46,124 nt of DNA from a virus (taxonomy: Duplodnaviria > Caudoviricetes), in IMG/VR virus record IMGVR_UViG_3300042914_001187, positions 1 through 46,124 of that record; one strand, 5' to 3'. Position numbers and translations under genes: made by a program. The first letter of the stretch is position 1; each line of letters begins with the position of its first letter. This document shows positions 3,108-31,517 of this stretch, piece after piece. Under the pieces are notes generated by a model. That model saw only the letters and a list, made by a program, of their open reading frames with translations, had not been told where the DNA came from and did no database searches.

Positions 3108-3683
3108 ATGTATTCAACCCGTGAAGAATGGCTCAGTGCTGGAGTCGAGGAAGTCCGGCCCCTGTTCGACCTGTATTCAAAGCCCTTGCCTGCCAAGGTG
3201 CGGGTCTCTTGCGGCTTCCCGTCCACCGCCCTGCGGTCGGGTGCTATCGGTGAGTGCTGGATCAACACCGCCTCTGCCGATGGCACCTTTGAGATTTTGG
3301 TGCATCCCAAGCTGGCTGACCCCGTCAAGGTGTTCGAGGTTCTCATCCATGAACTTTGCCACGCCACTGCTGGTGCGTTTAACCATGGGGTCAACTTTCA
3401 GAAGATTGCCGGGGCTATGCACCTGAAAGCGACCGGCTCAGGTCGCCAGCCGTGGAAATCCACTGTCGGGGATGATGATTTTCTGTCGGTCTATGCCGCC
3501 ATCATTACCGGCCTGGGCGACTACCCTCACGCCGAGTTGAAGTCCGACCGCCAGATCAAAAAACAGACCACTCGCCTGCTCAAGGCCGAGTGCCCATCCT
3601 GCGGGTATACCGTGCGCCTGTCCCAAAAATGGGCGGCGCAAGGTCTGCCTACCTGCCCCTGCGGCGATACCCTTTCCCTCTAA
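3108..3683 (+). CDS. SprT-like zinc metallopeptidase with C-terminal Zn ribbon
   Basis: LIHELCH (HExxH), HG..F, CPSCGY...PTCPCG. Confidence 0.8.
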   Translation: MYSTREEWLSAGVEEVRPLFDLYSKPLPAKVRVSCGFPSTALRSGAIGECWINTASADGTFEILVHPKLADPVKVFEVLIHELCHATAGAFNHGVNFQKIAGAMHLKATGSGRQPWKSTVGDDDFLSVYAAIITGLGDYPHAELKSDRQIKKQTTRLLKAECPSCGYTVRLSQKWAAQGLPTCPCGDTLSL

Positions 3684-3702
3684 CCACCACCGAAAGCGAA
3701 TC

Positions 3703-5139
3703 ATGGCAAACATTTCCCAGACCATCATCCAAATCGCCCGTCTGCCCCTGCCTGTCGTGGCAGGTGCGTACAACCAGTACCACCCCAACCCTCAGGGCGG
3801 GGTTACCAAGACCGATGCAAGCCGCTGGCTGGCCGAGGCGGTCGAGGCTGGCACCCTGAGCATGAACAACATCATGGCCGCCACGCCTTCGACCTTCAAG
3901 GCCGCGCCGACCATCGATCCCGCCATCGGGGCCAAGGTTGATGCAGCCTCGCAGGTTGCATCTGATGCCCGGGCTGATGCCCTGTCTGCGCTCAATCGCA
4001 TCGATGCCATCGACGACAACATCAGCGCAGTGATCCAGACAATGGCTCGCGTCGAGCACAAGTCCAACACCCTGTCCGACAAGATCGATGGCATCAAGAT
4101 TGATGACCGTAGCATTAAGGTAGCGGTCGATTCAATTATTGGCGACCACTTTTCGCGCTGGTCTAAACGCATCGAGGACGCGGGTGCCCAACAGGTTGTG
4201 GCCGACCAGACCGCCGCGCACCGCACTGGCAGCAAAAGCTGCTTTGAGGTTTTCGGCATCGATGTTTTCGATGTTAAGGGTCAGCCACTGATGGTTGACC
4301 TTTGGAACCATCCCCAGGCACCTGCGGTAGACCCCGACTTCATCTGGACTGAGGGCATTCTCAAGCACCTGCTGCTCTCTGACCGGACGGGTGAGAATCT
4401 TTGGTTTGGCGGCGAGAAAGGCACCGGCAAGTCTGAGACGGCCCGACAGTTTGCAGCCCGTACCGGACGCGCGTTTAAACGCATCAACTTCCACAAGCAC
4501 ACAACCGTGGAAGAGTATGTCGGCGCTGTGGGCATCGAGGACGGCAAGACCGTCTTCCAGGCCAAGGACTTCCTGCTGGCCTACACCATGCCCTCCACCG
4601 TGATCCTGCTGGATGAGGTCACCAACGCTGACCCAGGCGAACTGGCAACGCTCAATGGTTTCCTTGAGCCCAACGCCTGCGTGTCCTTTGGGGGTCTGAC
4701 CCATACCCGCGCCGAGGGGGTGCTGGTCTTCGTGGCCGACAACACCTTCGGCAATGGTGACGACTCAGGCAGGCACGCTGGCACCCGCATGCAAAACTCT
4801 GCCCTGGTTGATCGGTTCTCGCGGGTGATCCAGTTTGACTACCTGCCCAAGGACTCTGAGATCGAGGCCATCACCCGCCGCGCCGGCTGCAACAAGGCAA
4901 TCGCCGAGGCGATTCACTGTGCCATTCAGGTTGCGCGGCACAAGGTCAAGAGTGCCGACATTGTGGACGCACCATCGATCCGGTCTGCCATCGCCTTTGC
5001 CCGGGCAATCCAAGTGCTTCCCCTGCGTGAGGCTTGGACGACCACTGTCGTGGCCCGACAACCCGTCGAGTCTCACGCTACCCTGATGGGCATCTTCGAT
5101 GCCTGCATGAATCAAGAATTTTTCAACGACAACATTTGA
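3703..5139 (+). CDS. MoxR/CobS-like AAA+ ATPase
   Basis: Walker A GEKGTGKS, Walker B ILLDE, NSALVDRF, SIRS sensor; long helical N-terminus. Confidence 0.88.
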   Translation: MANISQTIIQIARLPLPVVAGAYNQYHPNPQGGVTKTDASRWLAEAVEAGTLSMNNIMAATPSTFKAAPTIDPAIGAKVDAASQVASDARADALSALNRIDAIDDNISAVIQTMARVEHKSNTLSDKIDGIKIDDRSIKVAVDSIIGDHFSRWSKRIEDAGAQQVVADQTAAHRTGSKSCFEVFGIDVFDVKGQPLMVDLWNHPQAPAVDPDFIWTEGILKHLLLSDRTGENLWFGGEKGTGKSETARQFAARTGRAFKRINFHKHTTVEEYVGAVGIEDGKTVFQAKDFLLAYTMPSTVILLDEVTNADPGELATLNGFLEPNACVSFGGLTHTRAEGVLVFVADNTFGNGDDSGRHAGTRMQNSALVDRFSRVIQFDYLPKDSEIEAITRRAGCNKAIAEAIHCAIQVARHKVKSADIVDAPSIRSAIAFARAIQVLPLREAWTTTVVARQPVESHATLMGIFDACMNQEFFNDNI

Positions 5140-5147
5140 GGCGAATC

Positions 5148-6734
5148 ATGAAACGCTATCACGGATACTCGTTTAAACAGGCCGTCGAAAATTTGACACG
5201 CAAGGTCGCGGCCGAGTTTGGTCTGGCGGTCAGGACGATCAACTGGCATGCAGGCATCCAGACCGCCGGTACAAACAAGGACGGCGACATTTACTTCGCT
5301 GACGTTGCGGATGACGCGGTGCTTTATGACATTGATGTTCAACGCTATGTCGGTTTTGTGGTGCATGAACTGCTGCACCAAAAATATACCGACTTCAACG
5401 TCAACCACCACGACCAGTACGTCAACCAACTGCACAACGCGGTCGAGGATGCCTGGATCGAGCATACGGGTATCGATGCCAAGCTGACCGGCAACATCGA
5501 TGGGCTGCTGACCGCGCTGCTGGATCAGATTGTGGGCGAGGCCAATGCCACGGTGACTGATTGGGCAGACCCTGCTCAATACCCGTTTATCTTCGCGGTC
5601 TACCTGCGGCGGCATCTGAACACCCATGTCCCGGTGCCTGCTGGCCTGGAGCCCATCATCATTGGCGCGACTCAGCGAATCGATGCCTGCCGCTCCAGCA
5701 AGGACACGCTGGCCCTGGCTGAGTGGATCATGGGTCAACTCCAGGCCCTGCCAAAGAACCCCAAGAACACCCCCGACAAGGCCCCCAAAGGCCCCTCAGA
5801 GGCTCCATCTGATGACGGCAATGGTAAGGGTGCAGGCGAGGCCGATAAGGGCTCCAGGCTTGGCGACAACCCGCACAAAAGCCCAGGCTCTGCCCGGGCT
5901 CCCAAAAAATCTGATGAGGCGGTGGAGGTTGAGCCCTCCATCAAGGTGCCCGAGGGCAAGGCCGGTATCGGGTCATGGTCTGAGCATGCAACACTGACCC
6001 CGCCTGACCATCACCTGCGCAGCAACCCCTGGCTCACCGACCAACTGGCGGTGCCTGCGCGGCTGCGGTATGAGGTCAAGCGCCTGTTCGACAACTCTGG
6101 GCGCGAGGACTTCCAGCGCAACCGCAGGGCTGGCTCGATCAATGTCTCGGCCCTGCACAAGATCGGCATCACCGACAAGCTGTTCCAGCGCCGCCATGCG
6201 GTTGAGGGCATCGACTCTGCGGTTGTGATCTGCCTGGATGTTTCGGGCTCGATGTTCGATGACGGGAAAAAGAATAAAAAATACAACATGAGCAACCGCA
6301 TCGTCCAGGCTGCTATGGCAACCAGGGCGCTGCTGGATACCCTGCAAAAGGCCCAGGTCGAGACCTGCGTCCTTGCCTTTGGCTCGTTCACTTCAGTGGT
6401 CAAGCCCTGGGGTGAGCATGCGGTCAAGGCTGCGGCAAAGATCAACAGCATCGGCAACGGCGGGTCAACCAACGACTACTTCGCGGTTCGCTACGCCCAC
6501 AAGCTGCTGCTCAGTCGCCCCGAGCAGCGCAAGATTTGCTTTGTCATCACCGATGGCATCGGCAAGCCTATAGCAGTGCGCAACCAGTGCGAGGCAGGCA
6601 ACAACCTGGGCATCACCACCATCGGCATCGGCATCGAGCAGGACGTTAAGCATGTATACCCTCAGTCGGTGCGGATCACTGACGTTGGCGACCTGGGCAC
6701 CGTGTCATTCAAACAGATCAAGCTGGCAGCATGA
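5148..6734 (+). CDS. CobT-like protein: N-terminal HExxH peptidase-like domain plus C-terminal VWA domain
   Basis: VHELLH...NAVED; MIDAS DVSGS, GGST, ITDG; start at ATG 5148 after GAGG. Confidence 0.85.
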   Translation: MKRYHGYSFKQAVENLTRKVAAEFGLAVRTINWHAGIQTAGTNKDGDIYFADVADDAVLYDIDVQRYVGFVVHELLHQKYTDFNVNHHDQYVNQLHNAVEDAWIEHTGIDAKLTGNIDGLLTALLDQIVGEANATVTDWADPAQYPFIFAVYLRRHLNTHVPVPAGLEPIIIGATQRIDACRSSKDTLALAEWIMGQLQALPKNPKNTPDKAPKGPSEAPSDDGNGKGAGEADKGSRLGDNPHKSPGSARAPKKSDEAVEVEPSIKVPEGKAGIGSWSEHATLTPPDHHLRSNPWLTDQLAVPARLRYEVKRLFDNSGREDFQRNRRAGSINVSALHKIGITDKLFQRRHAVEGIDSAVVICLDVSGSMFDDGKKNKKYNMSNRIVQAAMATRALLDTLQKAQVETCVLAFGSFTSVVKPWGEHAVKAAAKINSIGNGGSTNDYFAVRYAHKLLLSRPEQRKICFVITDGIGKPIAVRNQCEAGNNLGITTIGIGIEQDVKHVYPQSVRITDVGDLGTVSFKQIKLAA

Positions 6735-13014: not shown

Positions 13015-13056
13015 ATACAAAAACTTTTGCAACCAAACCAATGATTGGAGAACCGC

Positions 13057-13746
13057 ATGACGCCGAGTGAGTTACTCAAGGTCAACGTCAACGACCACGT
13101 TGAGAAGAAGCAGGGCCTGTCATACCTTTCCTGGGCCTGGGCCTGGGCAGAGGCTTTGAAGGCAGACCCAATGGCAACCTTTCAAATCCAGATGTTTGAA
13201 GGCCAGCCATACCTGCGCATCAACGACACGGCCATGGTCATGGTTACTGTGACTATGTTCAACAAGCCGATCACCTGCTTCTTGCCGGTGATGAACGGGG
13301 CCAACAAGCCCATCACGTTCGACGGCAGGAAGATACAGACCCGCAACGGTGAGATCATCGAGAAGATTGACAGCTTCAACGTGAACACCGCGCTGATGCG
13401 CTGCCTGACCAAGGGTCTGGCGCTGCACGGATTGGGTCTGTACATCTATGCCGGTGAAGACCTGCCAGAGGCTGAACCCGTCAAGGTCATGCCCGTGGAT
13501 CAAAGCACCGGAGAGATCAAGGCTGAAGTCAAGATGGACACCGGCAGCGACGAAGCAAACGCCAAGCTGTTCGCTGAAGGAATGATCAAGTACTCAAGCT
13601 TGGTCAAAGACCTGAAGGATTTAAACAGCTACTGGAAGGCCAACCAAGGCCAACTGGACAAGCTGAAGACCAGCCACCCTGAACTCTATGAGAACGTTCG
13701 CAACACCTTCGCCCACATCAAACTTTCATTTCAACCCAAGGAGTAA
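13057..13746 (+). CDS. Sak3/DUF1071-like ssDNA annealing protein
   Basis: VEKKQGLSYLSWAWAW, LPVM, NTALMRCLTK.LALHGLGLYIYAGEDLP. Confidence 0.85.
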   Translation: MTPSELLKVNVNDHVEKKQGLSYLSWAWAWAEALKADPMATFQIQMFEGQPYLRINDTAMVMVTVTMFNKPITCFLPVMNGANKPITFDGRKIQTRNGEIIEKIDSFNVNTALMRCLTKGLALHGLGLYIYAGEDLPEAEPVKVMPVDQSTGEIKAEVKMDTGSDEANAKLFAEGMIKYSSLVKDLKDLNSYWKANQGQLDKLKTSHPELYENVRNTFAHIKLSFQPKE

Positions 13747-17963: not shown

Positions 17964-18250
17964 TGTACCGCAGCAAGAAACTGCTGGAGGCTGTGCGGGA
18001 GGCACCCTGTATGCACTGCGGGGCTCAGGATGGAACCATCTGCGCGGCCCATTCCAACCAGTTGCGGGACGGAAAAGGCAGAAGCCTGAAGGCCCACGAC
18101 TACAGGATAGCGGCCTTGTGCCACCTCTGCCACTTCCAGATTGACCAAGGTTTCCTGTGGAACAAGGAACAGAAGCGCGACATCTGGGATGAGGCCCATC
18201 GAAAAACCATTGGCTGGCTCTTCGATCAGGGCATCATTTCAATTCGCTGA
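17960..18250 (+). CDS. DUF1364/DUF968-like His-Cys nuclease
   Basis: PCMHCG...AAHSN...GKG..LKAHD...ALCHLCH. Confidence 0.75.
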   Translation: MMYRSKKLLEAVREAPCMHCGAQDGTICAAHSNQLRDGKGRSLKAHDYRIAALCHLCHFQIDQGFLWNKEQKRDIWDEAHRKTIGWLFDQGIISIR

Positions 18251-21200
18251 CGGCCTTCTTGACTGACTTGATGTTGGCGGTCAGGTTGTTTTCCATCCTG
18301 CCCAGGTCAACCAACAGGTCGCGCTTTTCATCAGATTCCATGTCAGAAGAGTTGATCGTGCGGCGCATCTCACGCAAGTCTTTCATGCTCTTCTCGATGT
18401 CTCTGACGTAGTCTTTGACCGCAAGAAGACCAATGTTGTCTTCAAGGTACTTGGAAAACTCTTCTGGTCTGGCGGTCTTCTCCAGCAGGCTCATGGTTCT
18501 GACGACAGTATCCACCGACCGCTGCAACTCATAGAACTGCGTGACGGAGCCCCGGGCCTCTGGGTCAAGGGCGAACCGTTTAACCACCGGCAACTGCTCA
18601 AACCGCAGGGATGCCTTGGGCACATCTGAAAACTCACTGGAGACGGCGTCGATCACATCTGTGACGTAGCCGCCAATCGTTCCCGTGTAGCCCTTGATAA
18701 GTTGATCCACCTTCAGCGGCGACAGGTTCAGCAGCCCACCAATGTACTCGGCGGTCTTTGATGTGCCGGGGCCGACTTGGAATCTGGCCTCAACCTCTTG
18801 CATACCCTGCCCGACGATAGGCCGCATGGTGAAGAAGTTGAAGTTCGTCGCCACCTCAACGATTGGTTTAAACGTTTGAGGGATTGGGTTGAAGGCGAAT
18901 GTGTTGGCCAGAGCCCGCAGGGTGGACATGCCAAGGTCTTTGCCGGTGTCGTTGCCCATGAAATAAGCAATGATCCGTTCAGGCATGGTCTTGAACAGGG
19001 TTCCAACCTCAAATGGGATGGGCACCCGGATGCCAACACTGGTGAAAATCCAGTTGTTGTCTTTGGTTTCCTCTTCCTGCTTCTGGTATTCCTCATCATC
19101 AGCCACGGACAGGTAGTACATGGACGACAGAGCCGCCATGGTCATGCCCCGAATCCAGAACCGGCGCTTGATTTCCTTTGCATCCTGGGTATTCATCTGG
19201 CCTGCCGAAGCCCGATAGAACAAGTCCAGACCCTGCAACCGGGCGTTGAAGAACGGGATCGCTGCGGTGGCGATGCGGATCAGGACGTTATTGCCCTTGC
19301 GGCTGAAGTTCATCACCTCCATGGCCCGGGAAATCGCTTCCGCCTCGTTGCCGGTCTCTTTCATGACCCGCTCATACACCGCCATGCGCGTAGCAGCGTC
19401 CGACGCGGTGGTACCCTTCTCCAACCCTTCCCACAGGGATTTAAACGGCCTGAGCAAGATGGCGTCTTTACCTGCCTTCTTGTTCAGGTCTGAACTAAGG
19501 GTTTCCCCTGACTGCTCAATGTTCTGGCTGAACTCATACCCGCCGACGACCCCGGCGTTGAACAGGGCCTGAAGGTTCTTGTCCTTTGCGGACAGGGCCT
19601 TGCCAAAGTTGACCATGGTGCCAACGATGGGGGTAATCTTCTGGCCGCTTGTGACGTACGACGACAGGGAGTCGCGCAGCAGGTTGGCCATCATGAAGCC
19701 CGGGTCCTTGGTCACCAAGTTCCTCAAGACATTGGCAGGCCCAGACAACAGCCCCATGAAGGGCAGGTCAGGCATGTTTAAGCTCTTCAGTGCATCGATA
19801 AACAGTTGATCTGACGAGCGGTAGTACACCACCTGGCCGTTTTCCAGTTGCGTGTAAACATCTATGCCGGTAGCCGGTCCAGGCAGGCGCTCCGTCTCGT
19901 TGATCTCCAGCGCCACCTTGGTGGCCCTCTGGGCCGCGATGTTCTTCATCCCGGAGTTGATCATGGACTGGGTGTTCCTGACCATGGTCTCCAGGAAATC
20001 AGCCAGAGGGGCTTCTCCACCCTTGAGTTCTTTTGGCCCCCTGACGCCAGAGATTCCACCAAACGGGTTCGGCCCGATGGTTTTGTCCAAATCCAACTGG
20101 CGATAGAACGGGATGTAGTCAGCGTACTGCGTGTAAACCTGCGCCCGCTCGCGGCTTAGAACGCCGGTCTGGACCGCGAAGTTCACGATGCCGTTGTTAA
20201 ACGCGATCAGGTCTTTCTGAACCTGAACAAACTCAGGGTGCTGGGCCTCAATCTCTTGGGCCAACTTGGCGTCTTTAGCGTTGTACAGCCGTTCTTTGCC
20301 TTCATCCAGCAGACGGCGACCGCGCTTCCAGCCAGCCCAGAACTGATACCGCTGGTAGACCTCTGGGTCACCGTACTTCGCAAGAGGAGCCAGAGCTTCT
20401 GTCAGGCCCTTGACGCTGGTGTCGATGGTGGTGAAGCCGTTACGGTAGACAGGAACCCCGCCTTGGCGGTCTCCAATGCCCATGGCGGATGCTGCAACAC
20501 CCGCTGATACATCAGACTGAAGGGCGGCAAACTCTGCGCTCTGGTCAGCCAGAAGTTCAGGGCCGCCAGCCAGACGAATCTTTTCCCGCATCCTTTGGTC
20601 AAACTTGGCCAGAGAGTCATAGCGGTTGATGAACATCTGACGCAGGCTGGTGTAGTCATTCTTGAACCCACCAATGACTCGTTCTTTAAAGCCCAACTCA
20701 ACCCGGCCCGGGGCAACTTGTTTGATCCGGTCGTTGGCCGCTTTGGACAGAGTGGGCAGGCTGAACTTGATCTCACTCTCCATGCGAGTGAACTTCTCCC
20801 GCGCCCTCTCCCGGTTGTCATAGGACAGTGGCTCAATAACAGTAGCCAACAAAAACGAACTGACCGAGTCATCGTACTGCGCATTGATAAATTTGTGCGC
20901 TATGGGCTCTGCAACCTCGGCTTCTATGTCAATGTAGATTGGGACTCTGCGATACCCTGCCTCATGAAGGGCAAGCATTCTGTGCCGACCCTCATGGCTT
21001 GTGATCTTCCATTCCCCGTTTCGCTCGACAACACTCAGGTACAAAGGCTGACTTTCTTTTTTAAGCCTTTCAGTATCCAGTGGCTCTTGCTCTTTGCGCA
21101 GACGGTCCAGCGTTTCTGGCGATGCCGTGGCTTTAACAAAGTCCATCGGGTCAACGAACGCAAGATACCCCTTGGTCTTTTTCTTAGCCGAGCTTTGTGT

Positions 21201-24200
21201 GTACATGGACTCGTTGTACAGGCGGTCAAACCGCTCTGGCGTGTAGCGAACCTTGCTCAGGCTGTACCTGACATCCTTGGTCTCAAGGTTAAACTGGCCG
21301 TCGTTGCCCGTGATGGACTTGACCTGCTGCGGTTTAAACACAGCGTAAGACATGGGGGCGGTGCGGTTGCGGCGAACCACATAGCCATCAAAGCCAAGCT
21401 TGCGAATCGTCCGCATGATGTCTGGGCGCTCAACCACCTTGGGGAAACCCTGCGCCAAGATGCCTTTCAGGCCATCAAGGATGTTCTCAACATTGACGGT
21501 GGGTGCGCCGCCAATCTGCTTGTTTATCTGCTTGGCTACGTCACCAATCTGGCGGTCCATCGTCTCCGTGTAGTCATAGGCATCCATGACCTGCTGGACA
21601 TGCTCTTTGTTCCTGAAGTCGAACGGCGTCATGGCGCGGGCGTACAGCGGCATGATCTTCATCCGCTCAGGAGACAGTGACAACAGAACGTCATCCATCT
21701 CTTTCTTGATGAGGTTGTAGCTGTCAAAGTCAGGAATGTTGCGCGTTGCATCGCGCATGAACTTCTCACCCTGAGCCTTGGTGATCCTGTCCTTTGACAC
21801 AGCCTCATCGACCGCCTGCTGGAAAAATGGCAGCTTTTCGTCCTTGTTCAGGGCCTTGTAAACCCTCTCACGCAGACGATCCTCTGCCATGCGGCCCCAC
21901 TTGGCTGACTCTTCTGCGGTGTCAGACAGGTAAATGACCCCGTCATTGAACTCAAAGAAGTTGGATGTGGTGGCGTGGAAGAACTTCTTGGCTTTGCCGT
22001 CTTCGTCAACCCACTGGCTTCCGGCGATGTACTGTTTAAACTCAGGTGTGTCGGGAACCTTGACGGCCTCTGCGGCTTCCTGAGCCTCTTTGGCAGTTGG
22101 GAATGCTACGCCCCGCAGGCTGTACCGCACATCCGGTGACTCAAGGCTGTAGGTGCCAACGTTGCCGGTGGCTGACTTGACCTGATTGGGCTGATAGACG
22201 GCAAGGTTCTTGCGCCCATGCTCTTTGACGTAAAAAGAATCAAAGCCAGCATTCTGGATGGCGTCTTGGAAATCTGCGTTCTCAATGGACTCCCAGCTAC
22301 CGGAGCGAATGTCTGCGGGGTCATAGGCGTCTTCAGTTAACTCAGCCAAGACCTTGCGAATATGGCCGGGGTTCTCGTAGTCAAACGGACGCTCTGCCCG
22401 CACGTACATGGGCATGATGTGCGGGCCGGTTGGAAGAAGATTGATGAATTCCTTTTGGATGTATTCCCGTGCCTCAGGGGTGGCATCTTTAAGGTCGCCC
22501 GTCTTCAGGCTTTCAATCATCTCTTTTCCAAGAGAGTCCTTGCCGTAATCCTTTTTAATTGCAGAGATGGCCCTCTTCACCCCGCCATCGATCTGCTCTT
22601 TGGACAGATACTTTTCGGGATTGCGAGCCACGCTTTCATAGCTGTCGGCGGCAAAACGGGTGGCAAACTCCGGGTCGTCCGTCAGGAAGATTGGTGCGCC
22701 ACGCTCAGTCTTGCGGGTGAAGTCTGTGGTGTCTTTTGCCAGCCCGTGGTACATGACCATCGGCGTACCGTCTTTGTTGACGATCTTGCTGTCACCAAGC
22801 CAGCGTTTAAATTCAGGGCTGGTGGGTGCCTTCAGGCTGAGTTTTGCTGCTTTGCCGGAAGGCTTTTCTTCGACGGCAGGCTCTGGTCGAGCTTTTTCAG
22901 CGCGTTGTACCTCTCGTCCGGCGACAGCCCCAGCGTCAGATTTTCGACCGAAGACCACAGACGGTCCTGCTCGTCCATCACCCTCACTGGCCTGCGCGAT
23001 GATTGCCTCTTCGTATCCAATGTCATCTGCTTTTACCCCGCTCAGTTTTGCGTACAAGCGTTTCTCATAGTACCAGAGAGCAGCCTGAATGTCTGCCAAC
23101 GTCAGATCAACGCCGCTCTTGCGCAGCTTGGCCTGCGCGTTACGGGCTGCCTTGTACATAAATGCGCGGTCAGAGGCTGTGAATGGGGCCTCTTCCAGCA
23201 TTTCGTACTCATTCTTGTAGATGGTGTTGGCCATCTTTTCAAGATTGTGGTCAAACAAAAGCTGCTCGTATGCATCGCCTGCGGCAGTCTCTGCTTGTTT
23301 AAACCATTCAGGCTTTGCCGCCTTGGTGCTGGGCTCCTTGCCACCAGCCAAGTATTCAAGTTCAGTGGTGAACCCAAAGTCTTTGTACTTGTTCCGCAAC
23401 GGGATTGAGGCCGCCACGACTTCATCGCGGCTTGCACTCGGTTGATCCATCATGTCGCGGAACTTGTTAATCGACGCCGTCGTGGCTTTGGGGATCAACA
23501 AACCACGCATCCGATTGATGGATCGAGTCCACCACAAGTCCATGGTCAGGTAGCCTTCTGAGCCGGACAGGTTGGCGTAGAACGCTCCAAGCTTGGGGCC
23601 GAAGTAAATGGCTGCGCGGGGGACGACCGTGTCAGCCAGATAGCTGCCGTCAGACTTCTCACCCATTTCACGCAGACGGGCGTTCATGTCTTTGACTGTG
23701 ATCTCTTCCAAGAGATGCTTTTCAAAGTCTGTGTTGTGGTCTTCCAGCAGACGCTCGATGCTGCGCAAATTGTTTTCCAGGGCGGTGGCCCGACGGTTGC
23801 CCATCGCAACCATGGGTTTGCCGTCGCGGAGTTTGGAGTACAACTCAACCGCGTTTGAAATGTTCTTGGTTACCTTTTCGCCGTTGGATGTAACGGCCAC
23901 GATGGCCGAAAACACCGAGCGGGCGTGTTGGTTATCAGCCAACTCAGGGAACCTTGCCTGCAAGCGTTTAACCGCGTTGGGGTAGTTGTTGGAGTACCAA
24001 CCCAGCCCAGTGCCGGTCTTGGCCGTCGTGCCCAATTGGTAAGACACTTCATCAGCTATCGCATCAGCAATCTTGACGACATCATCGTCGGTCAAGTTCT
24101 TACGATCCATCGCGCCATGCTTTTTCAACGTGTCGTTGTTCAGGGCACGGGCAATGTCGCGGACATTGTTGAATCTGCCGCGCTTGGCTTCAGTGTTTAA

Positions 24201-26789
24201 ACCCAAAGCTTCACGAGCCGCATTGTCTTCGTCTTCTATGACAGAACGGGTAGACAGCGGGATGCGTTCCCGCGCAAGACTGAACTTCTCTTGGCCGTAT
24301 GGAACATTTTCAAACTCTTTGAGTTTAGCCCGATAGGCAGGCAATACCTTGTCGTAAATGATCTTGTCTAGTTGTTTTTCTCCGTTTACACGCTCGGTGG
24401 ACACGCCCAGTTCTTTCAGGCGCTTCTCGATGCCATCCTGAACTTTGGTCAGGTTTGTATCTGCCCTACCATTACCGGGGAGCCAGCGGTCTTCATCTCT
24501 TCTAAGCCGATTTGTTCTGGCACTCTTAACCAGACGATCCACGCCATCATTGATAACATCGTCTATCGTTTTTAGGCTGAGTTTTTCTTGAACCGCAGGC
24601 GTTGCTTCAGCGGCAGGTTTGAGGCGACCGCGCTCAATGCTTTGGAAGATGTCATCAGCAGACTGGAACCCTGCGCCACGCAGAGCCTGACCCAGGCTGG
24701 CGAAGAAGTTCTTGATCTTGCGGTAGAGGGCGGCAATCATGCCCGGGGGTGGCTTTGCCCCCTTGTCATAAGCACCAAAGGCGTCTGCGATTGATTCTTC
24801 AACCACCGCATCGGAGACGTACTGATCCAATTCTTTCCCAGTGAAACCCTTCTGCTCGCCCTCTTTGGTGAACAGATCGACATACGCGTCATAGCGCGAC
24901 CGCTTGTCGTCGTACTTGGTTTCTTTGAGTTCTTTGATCCACTGCTTGTTTGCACGCTCTTCCAGCGCCTTCCATTGCTGGGGCGTGAAGAAACCCAAGT
25001 CCTTCATGGCGTGGAGGGACTCATGGCGCATGGTCTGGACGGGGGTTGCATCCTCCAGAGACACCCGGATCAGCTTGTCCAAGTAAGCCCCGCCAGCACC
25101 ATTCTCAATCCGGTCAACGATGTTCAGGCCAACATCACCCAGGCCGAACTTGCGCATCTGGGGGACGAAGGTCTTGTAGAGTTCTTTGGCGGTTTCGCGT
25201 CGTTGCTGTGTCTGTTTAAACACATCTTCGCCAACCGTCTGCTGGACTACGGCCTCTGCTTCGCCCAAAGTTTTGAACGTGCCGACGGGCTTGTTGTCCG
25301 GCCCGAGGACGTTGAACTGCTCGTTTACACGCTCAATCTGCCCAAAAGGCATGACCGTAAGAGGCTTGGCCAACGACTCCGAGCGGTCGTACAAATCTTT
25401 AATTTTCTGCGCCGACTCATCCATCATGGTCGGCATTTGAGTTTTGAGCGACTGATACTCTTCGGTGTTGGTCTGCTCGGTGGCCTCTAGACGCTCCAGC
25501 TTGTCTCTGGCCTTTTGAACGTCAGCGTTTATCTTTGCTTCGTCCTGCAAGAGCTTGTTGCGCTCTTCGGCCCTGATCTTGGTCAAGGACTCAAGCTTGG
25601 CGGTGGCTTCCTCTTGGGTGTCCACCACAGACAGGGGCTCATCCCTGCCCTGAGCCATGATGCTGAAGCCCTGCGGCACAGTCTCCCGGCCAGTCTCTTC
25701 CCGGTTGATCTTGAAACCACCGGGCAAGACATCAGGGAACCGCTGGGCGAGTTCTTCTTCGGTGACGGCCACACGGGCCTCTTCCTCGCGGCGAATGGCC
25801 TCCCTGTCCGGGCCCCTAATCGCGGCGATGGGGGCAGAGCCCAGCAGCCCCAATAGGCCCTCTTGGGTGGCTTGACCGGCCACGCCCTCAAACAAAGGCA
25901 CATCCCTGCCCTCGCGCTGAAGGGCAAGGTTTGCAGCCAGACGCTCTTGGCCACCCTGAATGGCTTCCGTGGGAACATCGACTGCGGCGGCTGTACCAAT
26001 ACGCCCCAGCATGGATTGGCTGGCTCTTGCTGCTGCGCCCGGGGTCAAAAGACGTTCTGCGCCGTACCTGCCTGCAACCAAACCGACGCCCGCACCCGTC
26101 AAAATCTGATCAATGTTCTGGCCCGTATATTCTTGCGCAGCGGCAGCCTTGACACGGGCCTCTTCTTCGCTTCGACCGTCCTCAATCTCTGCCCTGTAAA
26201 CAGCATCGTAAATAGCGCCCTTGACGGCACCAGCGCCCTGTGCAGTGCCAATCACAGTTGGAGAGGCTTTAGCCACCGCATTGGCGGCCTGAACAGATCG
26301 TGCTCCAAGCCCAAGAGCCGCAGCGGCGGCGGGGCCAAAAAGCATCGTTGGCAAATACGGGGCGAAAGAACCAACAGCCTGAGCGGCAGACTGAAGTGGC
26401 GCTTCTGCGATGTTTTTGGCGGCAGCTTTAATCTCTTCCCAGGTGCTGCCAGTTGCTTCTGCCTGCCTTAAACGCTCTTGCTGGCGTTGTAGCTCCGCCT
26501 GACGCGCAGACGACATCCCAGCCTGAGACGACCGAGCAAGGTCTTCAAGTTTTTGAGACGCAACATTTCCCGCCCCAAAAACATCAGTGAGGGCTTGGGT
26601 GCTGCCATAAGCGCCCTGGGCAAACGACGCAGCAAGATCGCTTAGACTAAACCCTGCTGGCCCAGAAGACTGCGCCGCGCCGGGCTGCGCAGCAATCATT
26701 CGTTTAACCGTCGTCTGAATTACGCTTGGATCAGTGCCATCGGGGAATTCAAGGACGCGACCATCAGCAAGTTCGGCTCTGATCGTCAT
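18234..26789 (-). CDS. Large polyvalent injected protein (metallopeptidase, glycosylase-like domain, two ADP-ribosyltransferase-like domains, ParB-like domain, LPD38-like C-terminus)
   Basis: RHESLH; GPKLGAFYANL...MDLW...QAALW; two segments of the type EFK.W...HG/HAT...IMP.Y...P.QVKS.TGN.G; EGRHR; RVPIPFEVG. Confidence 0.8.
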   Translation of the reverse strand: MTIRAELADGRVLEFPDGTDPSVIQTTVKRMIAAQPGAAQSSGPAGFSLSDLAASFAQGAYGSTQALTDVFGAGNVASQKLEDLARSSQAGMSSARQAELQRQQERLRQAEATGSTWEEIKAAAKNIAEAPLQSAAQAVGSFAPYLPTMLFGPAAAAALGLGARSVQAANAVAKASPTVIGTAQGAGAVKGAIYDAVYRAEIEDGRSEEEARVKAAAAQEYTGQNIDQILTGAGVGLVAGRYGAERLLTPGAAARASQSMLGRIGTAAAVDVPTEAIQGGQERLAANLALQREGRDVPLFEGVAGQATQEGLLGLLGSAPIAAIRGPDREAIRREEEARVAVTEEELAQRFPDVLPGGFKINREETGRETVPQGFSIMAQGRDEPLSVVDTQEEATAKLESLTKIRAEERNKLLQDEAKINADVQKARDKLERLEATEQTNTEEYQSLKTQMPTMMDESAQKIKDLYDRSESLAKPLTVMPFGQIERVNEQFNVLGPDNKPVGTFKTLGEAEAVVQQTVGEDVFKQTQQRRETAKELYKTFVPQMRKFGLGDVGLNIVDRIENGAGGAYLDKLIRVSLEDATPVQTMRHESLHAMKDLGFFTPQQWKALEERANKQWIKELKETKYDDKRSRYDAYVDLFTKEGEQKGFTGKELDQYVSDAVVEESIADAFGAYDKGAKPPPGMIAALYRKIKNFFASLGQALRGAGFQSADDIFQSIERGRLKPAAEATPAVQEKLSLKTIDDVINDGVDRLVKSARTNRLRRDEDRWLPGNGRADTNLTKVQDGIEKRLKELGVSTERVNGEKQLDKIIYDKVLPAYRAKLKEFENVPYGQEKFSLARERIPLSTRSVIEDEDNAAREALGLNTEAKRGRFNNVRDIARALNNDTLKKHGAMDRKNLTDDDVVKIADAIADEVSYQLGTTAKTGTGLGWYSNNYPNAVKRLQARFPELADNQHARSVFSAIVAVTSNGEKVTKNISNAVELYSKLRDGKPMVAMGNRRATALENNLRSIERLLEDHNTDFEKHLLEEITVKDMNARLREMGEKSDGSYLADTVVPRAAIYFGPKLGAFYANLSGSEGYLTMDLWWTRSINRMRGLLIPKATTASINKFRDMMDQPSASRDEVVAASIPLRNKYKDFGFTTELEYLAGGKEPSTKAAKPEWFKQAETAAGDAYEQLLFDHNLEKMANTIYKNEYEMLEEAPFTASDRAFMYKAARNAQAKLRKSGVDLTLADIQAALWYYEKRLYAKLSGVKADDIGYEEAIIAQASEGDGRAGPSVVFGRKSDAGAVAGREVQRAEKARPEPAVEEKPSGKAAKLSLKAPTSPEFKRWLGDSKIVNKDGTPMVMYHGLAKDTTDFTRKTERGAPIFLTDDPEFATRFAADSYESVARNPEKYLSKEQIDGGVKRAISAIKKDYGKDSLGKEMIESLKTGDLKDATPEAREYIQKEFINLLPTGPHIMPMYVRAERPFDYENPGHIRKVLAELTEDAYDPADIRSGSWESIENADFQDAIQNAGFDSFYVKEHGRKNLAVYQPNQVKSATGNVGTYSLESPDVRYSLRGVAFPTAKEAQEAAEAVKVPDTPEFKQYIAGSQWVDEDGKAKKFFHATTSNFFEFNDGVIYLSDTAEESAKWGRMAEDRLRERVYKALNKDEKLPFFQQAVDEAVSKDRITKAQGEKFMRDATRNIPDFDSYNLIKKEMDDVLLSLSPERMKIMPLYARAMTPFDFRNKEHVQQVMDAYDYTETMDRQIGDVAKQINKQIGGAPTVNVENILDGLKGILAQGFPKVVERPDIMRTIRKLGFDGYVVRRNRTAPMSYAVFKPQQVKSITGNDGQFNLETKDVRYSLSKVRYTPERFDRLYNESMYTQSSAKKKTKGYLAFVDPMDFVKATASPETLDRLRKEQEPLDTERLKKESQPLYLSVVERNGEWKITSHEGRHRMLALHEAGYRRVPIYIDIEAEVAEPIAHKFINAQYDDSVSSFLLATVIEPLSYDNRERAREKFTRMESEIKFSLPTLSKAANDRIKQVAPGRVELGFKERVIGGFKNDYTSLRQMFINRYDSLAKFDQRMREKIRLAGGPELLADQSAEFAALQSDVSAGVAASAMGIGDRQGGVPVYRNGFTTIDTSVKGLTEALAPLAKYGDPEVYQRYQFWAGWKRGRRLLDEGKERLYNAKDAKLAQEIEAQHPEFVQVQKDLIAFNNGIVNFAVQTGVLSRERAQVYTQYADYIPFYRQLDLDKTIGPNPFGGISGVRGPKELKGGEAPLADFLETMVRNTQSMINSGMKNIAAQRATKVALEINETERLPGPATGIDVYTQLENGQVVYYRSSDQLFIDALKSLNMPDLPFMGLLSGPANVLRNLVTKDPGFMMANLLRDSLSSYVTSGQKITPIVGTMVNFGKALSAKDKNLQALFNAGVVGGYEFSQNIEQSGETLSSDLNKKAGKDAILLRPFKSLWEGLEKGTTASDAATRMAVYERVMKETGNEAEAISRAMEVMNFSRKGNNVLIRIATAAIPFFNARLQGLDLFYRASAGQMNTQDAKEIKRRFWIRGMTMAALSSMYYLSVADDEEYQKQEEETKDNNWIFTSVGIRVPIPFEVGTLFKTMPERIIAYFMGNDTGKDLGMSTLRALANTFAFNPIPQTFKPIVEVATNFNFFTMRPIVGQGMQEVEARFQVGPGTSKTAEYIGGLLNLSPLKVDQLIKGYTGTIGGYVTDVIDAVSSEFSDVPKASLRFEQLPVVKRFALDPEARGSVTQFYELQRSVDTVVRTMSLLEKTARPEEFSKYLEDNIGLLAVKDYVRDIEKSMKDLREMRRTINSSDMESDEKRDLLVDLGRMENNLTANIKSVKKAVSELK

Positions 26790-26796
26790 TTAAACC

Positions 26797-29340
26797 TCAT
26801 TGAATTGGGTTGCCTTTTGAGTCAAACCGAATGACCTGACTTGCTGATCCTACACCAGTGGCTGATGGAGCGGCAAGTTTACCAAGGGCTTCAGATTCCA
26901 AAACATCTATCTTTTGCTGAAAACCAGCGCGTTCTTCTGGCGTTTTGGCCCTGTCGCGCTGCATGACCAACATGCCGTACATCGGGTTTTCTTTCCTAAA
27001 CTTGCTCAACAATTCAGCACGTTTCAGGTCTCCAGCTTGTTCTGAACGGAATGAATACCCAGCAGCGCGGCTTGCCTTTTCCATGGCTTGATCAAAGGAC
27101 AGCTTGGGGTCCTCTCTCATGTACCGCTCGGCGTATTTGATGAGGGCTGGCTGTGAATCAGCGCCTCTTGCCCGCATGATGTCCAACTCTTTCTTCTTCA
27201 AATCAAACATGCGGTCTTGCTGGCTAATCTGCTGCTTGAGCTTTTCCTGCTCCAGTTGACGCGTGCTGATGTTGTTGGCCAAGCTTGCTGCAAGCTGCAT
27301 GTTGCCCTGCTCCAGAGCCGTCTCATACCGGGCGTTCTCCATCCGCAACTTCATGTAGTTGTCTTGGGCGGCCTGTTTAAGCTTATTGGTCTCTGCCATC
27401 GACTCAGAAATCAGCGGGGCGGCTTCAGCGGCAGACTCAAATGCCCCGGCAATACCAGAACGACGGCCCGGTTTAGCTGCGGCTTTAGCCATGCCGAAGC
27501 CAAACTTCATCATCGCCTCACCAATACTCCGAGCCTCAATTTCTTTGGATCGGTTCTTGGCGGCATCCAACTCTTCCTTGAACTGTTTGCGCTCAGGCTC
27601 AGACCTTGCGTTTAACTCTTCACGGATTTTCTTGGCCAGTTCCTGTGTCTCATCTTTTGGAAGCTGAACGTTCGCTGCCTCAGTGATGGTCCTGACTGCG
27701 GCGGCTGCGCTGCTTTGAGAGATGCTGCCGGATGCACGGGCAGGACGGCCCTCTTCCCGCCTTGCTTGTTGGCCTCGTGGTGCTTCTGGCGGCGCTGCTC
27801 GTGGTGCTTCTTGAGCGGCGCGGGGTGCGCTTGCTGGCGGCCTTTGAGCCATCACGCGCTCATATGTTTCCGGGGCTGACTGCCGCAGAAACCTCATCCT
27901 CGCCTCGTCCTCTTGGGCTGCTCGACGGGCTCGTTCATTCTCAATCCGAACCCTGTCCATTTCCATCGCCCCGGCAGCGCTTCCACCGAATTGAGGGTCT
28001 TGAACAAGGCTGTAGTTGTTGTCTTCTGTCGGGCCAGCAAAAGCCACGATGCCGCCAGAAGCCATTTCAGTGACTGCCTCTTGGGTCTCTTCAGGCAGGG
28101 TGTTAAACGCACTGCCAAGACCTGCGCGGAGAGATGCACGCTCGGCAATCTCGTCGTCGATCATTGCGACCTGTTCGCGGTCACCCCGATTCAGAGCGGC
28201 CAATTTGGACTGCTGCAACTGAACATCACTGAGTTTGTCCAGGGTGTTATCGACGAAGTAGTTGCTGGTTACGCTGCCGCCATCGGCATATTCATCTACC
28301 TGCCCGCCTTCGGCAAACATTTGGCCAAATCTGGCCATTCCGCCAAGACCAACACCCAGGCCAGCAATTTGACCCAGCATGCTGCCCGGTGGTTCATAAA
28401 TCTGTTTGGTCGACTGCTGCCCCAGCGGCAAGCCACGGATCATGTCAGACATGAAGCCAAGCTGTTTATACGGGTAGTTCTGCTCGTTCAGGAAGTCCTG
28501 ATACGCTTGGGTCAGACCCTGTTGCCGCAGTGCCTGTTGCTGTGCTCCCATCTGGGATTGCAGGCCAATAGTTTCTTTCTGCTGGCCAAACTCTTGTCCA
28601 CCCAGAGCACCCAACTGACCCGCACCCTGAAGCGCAGTCTGAAAACCCTGCATACCGAGACCGGCCCCGAACTGGCGGGACTGCTCACGAAGCTGTTGTT
28701 CCCGGGCAAACTGCTGCTGCGCCTGATCAAAGGCTGACATATAGCCTCTGGCGCGGATGTCACCCTGCTGCATGCCCAGGTTGCGCTGACGCTCTGCCTC
28801 AACGATAGCCTGACGGCCACCGCCAAACGCTCCAGACCGAACCGCCTGCGCCTGATCAGCCATCCGCTGCATCTCAGATGAACGCTGGGCCTCCCGAAGC
28901 TGGGGCTCCATCGCCATTTCAACGAACGGGTTCATGTACTGAGCGGCTCGGCCAGCGGTGAACTGCCCCATGCGGAAGGGGTCGTACTGAGTGCCAAGGG
29001 CACCCAAAGACGCAGCCCCCGCTACACGGCCACCAAACTGGCCAAGCTGAGAAGGCCCCATCTGTCCAGCGGCTGCCTGAGCCTGCTCTTGGAGAGGGGA
29101 GAAGCCAGCGATACGCGGGGCACCGTATGCCTGATAAGGCCCAGCCGTCAGGGCTTTGGTCTTTTCCAGCGTCTCTTGTGCGTACGGCTTGGCCCAGTCT
29201 GGCAGGTCAGTGACTTGGGTTTGTGTTGACGGGGGAGAAGAACCGCCGCCGCCATAAATGATGCGCCCGCCTTCTTTGCGGGTAACGCTTTCGCCAAGGG
29301 GTTCGCCAAAGGCTTCAAGTTGTCTGCGAGAGTAGTTCAT
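26797..29340 (-). CDS. Internal virion / DNA injection protein
   Basis: Gln/Ala/Gly-rich; YMNP, GAFGG.R; adjacent to the giant protein. Confidence 0.7.
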   Translation of the reverse strand: MNYSRRQLEAFGEPLGESVTRKEGGRIIYGGGGSSPPSTQTQVTDLPDWAKPYAQETLEKTKALTAGPYQAYGAPRIAGFSPLQEQAQAAAGQMGPSQLGQFGGRVAGAASLGALGTQYDPFRMGQFTAGRAAQYMNPFVEMAMEPQLREAQRSSEMQRMADQAQAVRSGAFGGGRQAIVEAERQRNLGMQQGDIRARGYMSAFDQAQQQFAREQQLREQSRQFGAGLGMQGFQTALQGAGQLGALGGQEFGQQKETIGLQSQMGAQQQALRQQGLTQAYQDFLNEQNYPYKQLGFMSDMIRGLPLGQQSTKQIYEPPGSMLGQIAGLGVGLGGMARFGQMFAEGGQVDEYADGGSVTSNYFVDNTLDKLSDVQLQQSKLAALNRGDREQVAMIDDEIAERASLRAGLGSAFNTLPEETQEAVTEMASGGIVAFAGPTEDNNYSLVQDPQFGGSAAGAMEMDRVRIENERARRAAQEDEARMRFLRQSAPETYERVMAQRPPASAPRAAQEAPRAAPPEAPRGQQARREEGRPARASGSISQSSAAAAVRTITEAANVQLPKDETQELAKKIREELNARSEPERKQFKEELDAAKNRSKEIEARSIGEAMMKFGFGMAKAAAKPGRRSGIAGAFESAAEAAPLISESMAETNKLKQAAQDNYMKLRMENARYETALEQGNMQLAASLANNISTRQLEQEKLKQQISQQDRMFDLKKKELDIMRARGADSQPALIKYAERYMREDPKLSFDQAMEKASRAAGYSFRSEQAGDLKRAELLSKFRKENPMYGMLVMQRDRAKTPEERAGFQQKIDVLESEALGKLAAPSATGVGSASQVIRFDSKGNPIQ

Positions 29341-29801
29341 ACTGACTCCGTGCTCAAAATTTTCGTGTACAGCTTATCTGTGTGCTTGTAGCCAAGGTAC
29401 TCAAACAGCCGCGAATTGTCCAGATGAATTTTCGTGTGCATGATGATGCGGTGAACACCATCAGCGCGTAACGCCTCTTCCGCAAACTGAAACAACCTGA
29501 TCCCGGTCCGCCCCAGTCGATGTTCTTTCCTCAGAAAGTAAATGTCTTCAAACGCCGTTTTGCACGTTCTGTAGTGCAAATGCGGGCTCACAATAAAAAT
29601 TGCGTACCCAACCAACCCGTCCGCATCTCGCGCTGTGATGCACCGCAGCATACCGGCCACATACAACTTGCCATATGCCTCATAGTCGGGTGCAAGCGGG
29701 AAATCTTTTGTCACGCATAACTCGTCGTAGTGAGCAGGAATGATTCCCTTCAACTCTTCAATAAAAGTTGCTGGGTCCTCTACGGCGTAGCTAATTGTCA
29801 T
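29337..29801 (-). CDS. GNAT-family acetyltransferase
   Basis: LVGY, DIYFLRKEHRLGRTG..L, LFEYLGY. Confidence 0.75.
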   Translation of the reverse strand: MTISYAVEDPATFIEELKGIIPAHYDELCVTKDFPLAPDYEAYGKLYVAGMLRCITARDADGLVGYAIFIVSPHLHYRTCKTAFEDIYFLRKEHRLGRTGIRLFQFAEEALRADGVHRIIMHTKIHLDNSRLFEYLGYKHTDKLYTKILSTESV

Positions 29802-31120
29802 GCTGGCAAATACTTGTCAGCCCGAGTGTTCTTGGCGACCCGGCCTTTGCCTGTCGTTTGGCCACGGGCCGCTTGTACACGGTTCATCATGGCGTACAGC
29901 TTACGCGCACCGGCCTCAGTCGAGCCGTTGCCCAGTTCAGAGACGATACGGGCTGGTACCACAAACTCACCGTCAGCCAGCCGCGCAGGGCGCTTACGCC
30001 CAATCACTGCGGGAATAGAGTCAGACACCCCATCGCCAGGGCCGCGCAGTAGCCTGCCGCCGTCGGAGTAATCGCCAAGGTCAGAGATGCCACCACGGGC
30101 CATTTTCTGCATACCGGTGGACATATCAACACCCATATCAGAGACACCACCACGGGTGTTCTGCATGTCGTAAACATTGGCGGCAGACATGGCTTCAACC
30201 GGACCGCCAGCGGCCATGCCCGAACCATAGTCATTTATGATGGGCATAGCGGTAAACGGAGACATAGCCACTACGGGAGCCGGTGGATTAACCGGCGTGA
30301 ACTGATGGTTGAAGTACCGTTGCTGCCTGCCAAAATCCCGACCAAGGCCGCCGTATCCAGGCACATCTGCCTGTGGCGTCGGGGAAACCGGGTTGGCGCT
30401 GTATTGCAGCGGGGTGGGAGGGGCTGTGGGCTTGATGCCTGGGGGGTTGTAATCATCGTCCCCCATCAACACAGGAGCCAAACCAGCGGCACCAGAGGTC
30501 AGTAAGCCCTTCATGCCGCCAACGCCCTGCATGAAAGCATCTCTACCTCCAGCCTCTGCCAGACTGGTCAATCCTTTGCCCATTACTGAAAACCCAGACG
30601 GAACAACAGGTGCGGCACCGGAGGCCACATTGGCACTTCCAGCAAGAGCCTCCAGCCCGGCTTGTCCAAATCCAGCATTTTGAGCGGCCAACATTGCAGA
30701 CTGAGAACCTGCTCCAGTTGCGGCTTGAGTGCCCAACGTCTGTGCAACCATTTCAGGAGTGGCAGCACCAGCCCCCATCAAGCCACTACCCAAACCCGCG
30801 CCACCATAAGCGCCGAGACCAGTCATTAGGCCCTGCTTCAAGTCTCCAGTCAGCGCCGCAGTTCCCCCGCCAATCATCAGGGCGGCCATGGGAGCGCCAA
30901 CGCCGGTTGCAGTCAAAGCTGCGCCAGCAATCATGGGCAGAATGCGCGACAGGAACCCAGCCTCAGGCAGACCAGTCTCAGGGTTAATACTTAGAGACCC
31001 GCCATGAGCTTCTGCCAGTTTTTGAAGGCTGTTTACCTCGCCCAGCGACATGTGGACAAGCTGAGTGTCTGGGCCTCGGCCTTTGGAGGCAAGGTGTTTG
31101 GCGGCGGCTTCAAGGCTCAT
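29798..31120 (-). CDS. Internal virion / pilot protein
   Basis: GRGPD..LVH, INPETGLPEA, Gly-rich hydrophobic stretch, GPGDGVSDSIPA...LADGEFV; GAGG SD before 31120. Confidence 0.7.
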   Translation of the reverse strand: MSLEAAAKHLASKGRGPDTQLVHMSLGEVNSLQKLAEAHGGSLSINPETGLPEAGFLSRILPMIAGAALTATGVGAPMAALMIGGGTAALTGDLKQGLMTGLGAYGGAGLGSGLMGAGAATPEMVAQTLGTQAATGAGSQSAMLAAQNAGFGQAGLEALAGSANVASGAAPVVPSGFSVMGKGLTSLAEAGGRDAFMQGVGGMKGLLTSGAAGLAPVLMGDDDYNPPGIKPTAPPTPLQYSANPVSPTPQADVPGYGGLGRDFGRQQRYFNHQFTPVNPPAPVVAMSPFTAMPIINDYGSGMAAGGPVEAMSAANVYDMQNTRGGVSDMGVDMSTGMQKMARGGISDLGDYSDGGRLLRGPGDGVSDSIPAVIGRKRPARLADGEFVVPARIVSELGNGSTEAGARKLYAMMNRVQAARGQTTGKGRVAKNTRADKYLPA

Positions 31121-31148
31121 ATTTGCCTCACGGAAAAGGGGTTGATTG

Positions 31149-31177
31149 AGTCTATCATGGGGGGTGTTTTTAGCCAA
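31149..31177 (-). promoter_or_regulatory. Possible internal promoter for the injection genes
   Basis: TTGGCT, 17-bp spacer, extended -10 TG-A-TAGACT. Confidence 0.4.
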
Positions 31178-31517
31178 CCTTCCAGTTAGTGCCGTCAGAA
31201 TAAACTGGGGTGAAAACAGCGCCGCCGCCAACAACGGTAGCGCCGAAGGTGGGAGTCAAGGCGTTGGTCACAAAGGTGCGCGCTCCAGCCCCGGAGGTGG
31301 CTGCACTGGGTAGGGTGGCCACGGTATAGTTTGTTGCTGCCGGAACAACGCTTGAGGTCCCAAGCTGGCCCAGGATGTTGTCGAGTCGGTTGAAGTACAG
31401 ACGCAGAACGTCAGCAAACTGATCGTGATACCGCTTCTCATACTCCGTGGGCGCGGTTGGCAAACGAGGCGCAACGACTCGGTTGAGTTCAAACTCTGAT
31501 GTAACGATCAGGGTCAT
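31170..31517 (-). CDS. Small tail-associated protein
   Basis: APRLP.AP.EY...LRLYF; C-terminal PVYSDGTNW. Confidence 0.65.
   Translation of the reverse strand: MTLIVTSEFELNRVVAPRLPTAPTEYEKRYHDQFADVLRLYFNRLDNILGQLGTSSVVPAATNYTVATLPSAATSGAGARTFVTNALTPTFGATVVGGGAVFTPVYSDGTNWKVG

Follow-up and report, generated by a model that had tools for sequence, protein, structure and literature searches.

The 46,124-nucleotide viral sequence analyzed here (IMG/VR record IMGVR_UViG_3300042914_001187, Caudoviricetes; hereafter the window) carries a gene for a 2851-amino-acid (aa) polyvalent protein in which a four-residue motif, [KR][LFY]SL, stands six times at the borders of a series of cassettes lying between an HExxH peptidase domain and a conserved tail. 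Cassettes have been exchanged at this motif. Judging from sequence, we think that [K/R]-x-S-L is, on balance, both the self-cleavage site of the resident peptidase and the crossover point of the cassette array, the cleavage half resting indirectly on an intact predicted zincin, on a motif that is conserved at the protein level and confined to the cassettes, and on the covariation of motif and peptidase clade.

The six motifs, at aa 736, 835, 1316, 1555, 1841 and 2008, lie where an earlier inspection made without database searches (the sequence-only reading) had placed them; composition predicts 0.27 occurrences, and 20,000 shuffles all stayed below five. Since the pattern had been picked after viewing the window, its relatives provide the independent test. 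Two scans yielded 70 viral loci; filtering 52 full-length open reading frames (ORFs) plus that of the window by tail identity (90%) left 29 proteins. In these 29 non-redundant proteins the cassette regions (HExxH domain to LPD38 tail; 36,583 aa) contained the strict motif 116 times and the 51,277 aa outside not once. The relaxed pattern [KR][LFYM]S[LIV], with a background of 0.23 per 1000 aa, gave 127 sites in the 36,310 aa from peptidase to tail, none in 27,325 aa upstream and one in 24,196 aa of tail. Relaxing the motif also brought in domain-internal sites (RMSI inside ART, RLNV inside a GP88 cassette), which were dropped from the masked-breakpoint analysis given below, while the RMSI sites stay in the 127-site, codon and 1,339-site counts. 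The motif did not occur in the window's 25 other proteins, which total 8,217 aa and include those of the Sak, tail and ejection genes (26 ORFs scanned). Avoidance outside the array is at most suggestive, zero being reached by 4 of 300 shuffles and 1 of 23 permuted patterns in relatives that are not independent. Eight distant LPD38 proteins from cultured phages showed neither the repeated xSL motif nor the present peptidase clade. A TYSL at 22143-22154 (minus strand), nine residues ahead of motif 4 in the C-terminal segment of the ART domain, where relatives are variable, is probably due to chance. In some proteins (P0175, P0181, P0176, P0202 and P0248) an own variant such as RASK/RYSK, RKSL or KLSV recurs at several junctions, perhaps a sign that the code can drift within a single protein.

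The proposal that the motif is a crossover point of domain swapping was borne out, since breakpoints in relatives map onto it, in close pairs at codon resolution. When the motifs were masked, 401 of 829 ends of alignments with more than 50% identity fell within 10 aa of a motif, compared with a null mean of 61 and a maximum of 125 in 1000 runs; for interior ends only, the figure was 148 of 376 (null 27.5, maximum 63). Between the window and its closest viral relative (L004), DNA identity breaks off at the Ser-Leu codons in motif 1 and restarts at motif 3. In an analysis of 1,339 sites from the fetched proteins, which was anchored on the motif and in which some pairs are indels, 86 of 99 swap types that share the upstream side and 183 of 222 that share the downstream side matched at no more than 3 of the 10 residues past the motif. 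Mean identity over 868 upstream-sharing pairs was 0.96 at the motif Leu and fell to 0.35, then 0.19 and then 0.09 at the three residues after it, and over 1,619 pairs it rose from 0.33 just ahead of the motif to 0.92 just past it. Not all indels in homologues begin and end at the motif: an insertion of about 300 aa upstream of the peptidase is not motif-bounded (L018, aa ~270-620; likewise L019, L021, L024, L026 and L037), and the window protein lacks it.

Splitting the 29 proteins at the motif produced 108 cassettes in 37 clusters, with 86 cassettes in clusters of at least two; within clusters the lengths are near-constant, while the order changes. A relaxed motif marked the start of close homologues of the five window cassettes in 11 of 12, 38 of 39, 79 of 82, 86 of 88 and 50 of 50 cases (raw counts). 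The motifs do not fall inside folded domains where this could be looked at: the ART Pfam matches end ahead of motifs 4 and 5, and motif 1 follows a linker. As to the domain labels of the sequence-only reading, Pfam recovered both ART domains and LPD38, and the domain of about 100 aa and of no recognized type after motif 1 corresponds to cassette 1 (99 aa), which matches no family. The ParB-like label of cassette 5 found weak matches (PFIN, E 0.018; a ParB chain, E 0.41), its HEGRxR being invariant. The glycosylase-like label of cassette 2 was left unconfirmed, as no match to an HhH-GPD DNA glycosylase appeared in Pfam, NCBIfam or PDB sequences; this cassette is DUF7178-related and has no solved relative by sequence. 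Other cassettes seen in relatives include GP88 (PF17338, L018:10754-12295), GNAT (L025:10568-11104) and a 969-aa DUF7178 cassette (L005:10724-13630), and many of 27 cassettes scanned from relatives had no Pfam match.

The peptidase motif proposed earlier was found as HESLH at aa 589, with H589, E590 and H593, and E665 of a downstream EE is the predicted third ligand. HExxH and EE are kept in all 328 full domains picked by profile score (a strict pattern recognized 291, and the other 37, with EEAISD, EEAVSD or EEAIAQ, were read by eye), and E665 is invariant in 99 alignment rows. An AlphaFold2 model built on these 99 rows (predicted local distance difference test score, pLDDT, 85.7) presents strands at 19-23, 32-35 and 38-42, an HExxH helix and a Glu helix, in agreement with the MPTase core as described in the available text of PMC5512222; K736-L737 of motif 1 is also assigned to a strand. 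Among solved structures PprI came nearest (Z 6.2), and PPEP-3 scored 5.6; zincins dominate the list, ArdC (4.1) being another of them. The domain thus models as a zincin-type metallopeptidase. A 25-row model, all-helical and with no structural match, was set aside for the 99-row one. A complex prediction of the peptidase with Zn and a 32-aa motif-4 peptide scored 0.00 and counts neither way.

We then compared the motif with the peptidase beside it. ART-PolyVal proteins of all kinds were gathered with a DNA pattern ending short of the motif (at least 247 ORFs, at least 235 of them non-redundant), and their HExxH regions were clustered into peptidase clades. Among the matches listed, to which all counts of ART ends given here refer, 19 of 21 proteins whose peptidase is of the DLSTxxHE type had Q at position 3 after ART, as against 1 of 66 ART ends accompanied by other peptidases (Fisher p 6e-16, a value that overstates the case because rows share ancestry, as do the covariation p-values in general), and in 8 of these 19 the ART end lay 239-672 aa away from the peptidase. 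Likewise, 83 of 99 ART ends of the present family had L or I at position 4; the HExxxH clade had L or I there in 4 of 32 and R in 21. The codes after ART are LxQ for the DLSTxxHE type, xSL for the present family and xSR for HExxxH clades, and cultured phages agree (xFSR or RYSQ in F116 gp60, Y11 and JY45; LNQ and LAQ in BD1 gp16 and in gp39 of the Caulobacter phage JessA, which has a DLSTxxHE peptidase). On the ART tree the 15 DLSTxxHE-clade rows need 15 changes (shuffled mean 14.0), so that they appear not to cluster on this poorly resolved tree (5 of 74 branches starred). The name MuF_C for the DLSTxxHE clade was discarded when Pfam did not return it in 11 sequence segments. Among the 22 ART ends in long ORFs without HExxH, R-led motifs were found in seven ORFs. 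In one ART protein without its own peptidase (L147, at +9476), the adjoining upstream ORF (from base 2) bears the matching clade, other members of which share its I[TR]RS ends; this arrangement suggests that the peptidase may act in trans.

Several observations weigh against self-cleavage. The fold scores are modest, with 6.2 as best Z and no Foldseek match at E 0.001 (best E 0.49), and the strand call at K736-L737 carries a pLDDT of only ~56-67. The covariation could stem from lineage history, through ART-to-ART crossover that keeps the junction of each scaffold, and it is weakened by the poor resolution of the ART tree and by the non-independence of the rows. Position 2 of the motif is loose (Y, K, L, R, F or A), and no relative with a dead peptidase was found that could reveal co-loss of the motif. 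Seven long complete ORFs (L225, L114, L097, L272, L224, L223 and L112) have similar post-ART ends with no peptidase detected in the ORF or in the fetched flanks. According to the available parts of the sources, the N4 virion RNA polymerase is packaged in one piece despite its HExxH domain (PMC5512222), and ArdC antirestriction does without the protease site (PMC7213743).

These points bear on two other explanations. The motif might be a protein signal read by another protease of phage or host, or by the packaging or ejection machinery, rather than by the resident peptidase. Protein-level conservation and confinement would suit any reader, the seven ORFs just mentioned carry such ends, and the available text of the phi24B preprint assigns the metallopeptidase of gp47 to peptidoglycan breakdown (10.64898/2026.04.10.717836). 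We nevertheless regard an outside reader as unlikely, given that the motif varies with peptidase clade even where the ART end is hundreds of residues off, that the 25 other window proteins lack it, and that the matching clade sits in the ORF adjoining L147. Less likely still is an uncut docking strand that tethers or unfolds cassettes for packaging, or that holds the peptidase inactive. The strand at K736-L737 would agree with it, and so would N4, where encapsidation of the uncut polymerase requires its MPTase region (PMC5512222, as far as its available text goes). On the other hand, all 328 domains retain the third ligand and the general-base Glu, neither of which a pure binding module would require, and 7 of 12 free-standing ARTs among the matches listed have the end that a cut would produce.

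At the codon level, the serine of 128 motif sites was AGY in 101 and TCN in 27, compared with an AGY share of 31% of Ser in genes, with every Leu (six), Lys and Arg codon in use. The remark that AGC CTG encodes S-L in four of the six window motifs is correct; it also encodes 4 of the 18 other S-L pairs of the protein. The six motifs have no DNA repeat family in common; the two ART ends alone share 87 nucleotides at 70%, ending at the motif. Since synonymous codons vary and no such repeat is shared, the motif is not a conserved DNA site, the AGC CTG remark carries little weight, and selection acts on the residues, as for a protein signal. Integrons and shufflons have a conserved DNA recombination site per junction, which the window array lacks; it is not a site-specific cassette system. 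No dedicated recombinase was seen among 27 ORFs scanned in the window, which may be only part of the genome. The AGY excess fits a junction spread by recombination. That the motif is a mere scar of 10-15 nucleotides of microhomology spread by Sak-type annealing, with no protein role, would suit this excess, the crossovers at the Ser-Leu codons and the Sak gene of the phage, but it is very improbable, since 27 sites use TCN serines, two bases off AGY, beside every Leu, Lys and Arg codon, no DNA repeat common to the junctions was found, and a neutral scar would decay and, as a DNA site, have no cause to follow peptidase clade.

If self-cleavage at the motif holds, the chain would be packaged and ejected whole and then cut in the host, the resident peptidase detaching the cassettes both from the tail and from its own domain. 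Exchange would land on the motif as the only short homology common to all junctions, with Sak as a candidate agent of such short-homology exchange, and only fusions that keep the cut site and a clean effector end would be retained. The bond cut is probably that between positions 2 and 3 (R-Y/S-L), or else that after Leu. Among the matches listed, 12 ART ORFs stop within 20 aa past the domain, 7 of them two residues after a conserved I/V, which equals the putative cut at R-Y/S-L. PprI cuts a short specific sequence after Leu and before Arg (PMC4374696, in its available part), which suggests S-L/R.

The features of the window that concern this gene are collected in Table 1. With its unlike domains, among them LPD38 and ART-PolyVal, and its virion-gene setting, the protein is by its sequence features a phage-type polyvalent protein. 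Upstream of its gene are genes for a phrog_4287 ejection protein, an acetyltransferase, virion structural proteins and a tail fibre, and because it follows these it is probably an ejection protein itself. From this context and from phi24B gp47 we infer that it would be packaged and delivered with the DNA.

Table 1. Features of the polyvalent gene and of related genes in the window (positions in nucleotides of the 46,124-nucleotide stretch)
Feature	Position	Strand	Remarks
Phage-type polyvalent protein, 2851 aa	18234..26789	-	ORF; Pfam LPD38 + ART-PolyVal
N-terminal region, aa 1-535	25185..26789	-	no family, no motif
Zincin-like metallopeptidase domain (predicted), aa 536-720	24630..25184	-	HESLH 25011-25025; EE 24795-24800
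Motif 1, KLSL, aa 736-739	24573..24584	-	behind polar linker after peptidase
Cassette 1, 99 aa	24282..24578	-	no family; carried by 12 fetched proteins
Motif 2, KFSL, aa 835-838	24276..24287	-	
Cassette 2, 481 aa	22839..24281	-	DUF7178-related
Motif 3, KLSL, aa 1316-1319	22833..22844	-	
Cassette 3, ART-PolyVal 1	22122..22838	-	PF18760, E 3.6e-19
Motif 4, RYSL, aa 1555-1558	22116..22127	-	
Cassette 4, ART-PolyVal 2	21264..22121	-	PF18760, E 5.7e-11
Motif 5, RYSL, aa 1841-1844	21258..21269	-	
Cassette 5, 167 aa	20763..21263	-	HEGRHR domain, weakly ParB/PFIN-like
Motif 6, KFSL, aa 2008-2011	20757..20768	-	
Conserved tail, 842 aa	18237..20762	-	LPD38 at 18585-19097 (E 1.4e-35); no motif within
Neighboring ejection-like protein, 847 aa	26797..29340	-	phrog_4287, E 2.5e-16; different repeated motif
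Sak single-strand annealing protein	13045..13746	+	E 3.1e-40

Other ejection-region proteins contain a second repeated motif, [FYMK]-A-x-G-G-x-[VI] (FAEGGQV, YADGGSV, MASGGIV, MAAGGPV), which in the window lies on the minus strand in 26797-29340 (aa 342, 351 and 426) and 29798-31234 (aa 340) and which occurs in most of L001-L038; it may serve as a target for a different protease or as a signal for packaging. DITK[AS]xGGxV ends many ART domains of proteins without HExxH. Elsewhere in the window, an ORF with a weak SprT-like match (E 6e-4), a MoxR-type AAA ATPase gene and a vWA gene stand in a row at 3108-6734 (plus strand).

In MARTX toxins and RNA-virus polyproteins an internal protease frees interchangeable domains at repeated short sites; both use cysteine proteases, and MARTX toxins are secreted by bacteria and have repeat arms. 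The comparison with MARTX made in the sequence-only reading stands as an analogy and not as membership: neither a cysteine protease nor MARTX/RTX repeats were found here, Pfam matching only LPD38 and ART-PolyVal, and the protease is of HExxH type. PprI, the IrrE/PprI gluzincin (8SLN, 3DTI) to which the match is weak, cuts one repressor in trans, whereas the window domain shares its chain with six candidate sites. The closest known system is that of the phage-type polyvalent proteins of Iyer et al. 2017 (PMC5512222), whose domain set (MPTase, ART-PolyVal, LPD38) and virion-gene context are those found here, and for which the MPTase was proposed to process the chain into functional units. The available text of that paper names no cleavage site or junction motif (YSL and RFS gave 0 matches). 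The giant virion proteins phi24B gp47 and N4 virion RNA polymerase likewise bear an HExxH or metallopeptidase domain (10.64898/2026.04.10.717836; PMC13434306), and gp47 also has LPD38 and is a proposed ejection protein whose peptidase would act on peptidoglycan; no self-cleavage site is given for either in the accessible portions, unlike the candidate sites described here. Nor was such a site present in what was available of PMC9503650, PMC9024508, PMC13434306, 10.1101/2020.03.07.982082 and 10.64898/2026.04.10.717836, and the junction motif was unnamed in the literature found, in which subscription journals are mostly outside coverage. Relative to the accessible text of PMC5512222, processing by the MPTase has thus already been proposed, and the named candidate site, the cassette map and the covariation of motif and peptidase appear to be new.

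Since 2017 the idea that the MPTase processes its own chain has been central to the view of polyvalent proteins, and the literature found names no substrate for it. A named candidate site, together with a catalytic residue and a cross-clade swap, makes the idea testable both by expression assays and with cultured phages. In addition, the motif divides proteins of 2-4 thousand aa into clean cassettes (the 108, in 37 clusters, from the 29 proteins, many without a family), which are candidate early-infection effectors, and self-cleavage at the motif, if true, would explain how polyvalent proteins take up new cargo without breaking. We give even chances to a broader plug-in grammar across phage polyvalent proteins, in which each zincin clade would read its own four-residue code (R-Y-S-L, R-F-S-R, L-x-Q or T/R-R-S) that is at once release site and recombination joint. 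If such a grammar is true, the effectors of thousands of phage proteins would become parsable, and new anti-defence effectors could be read from the motif.

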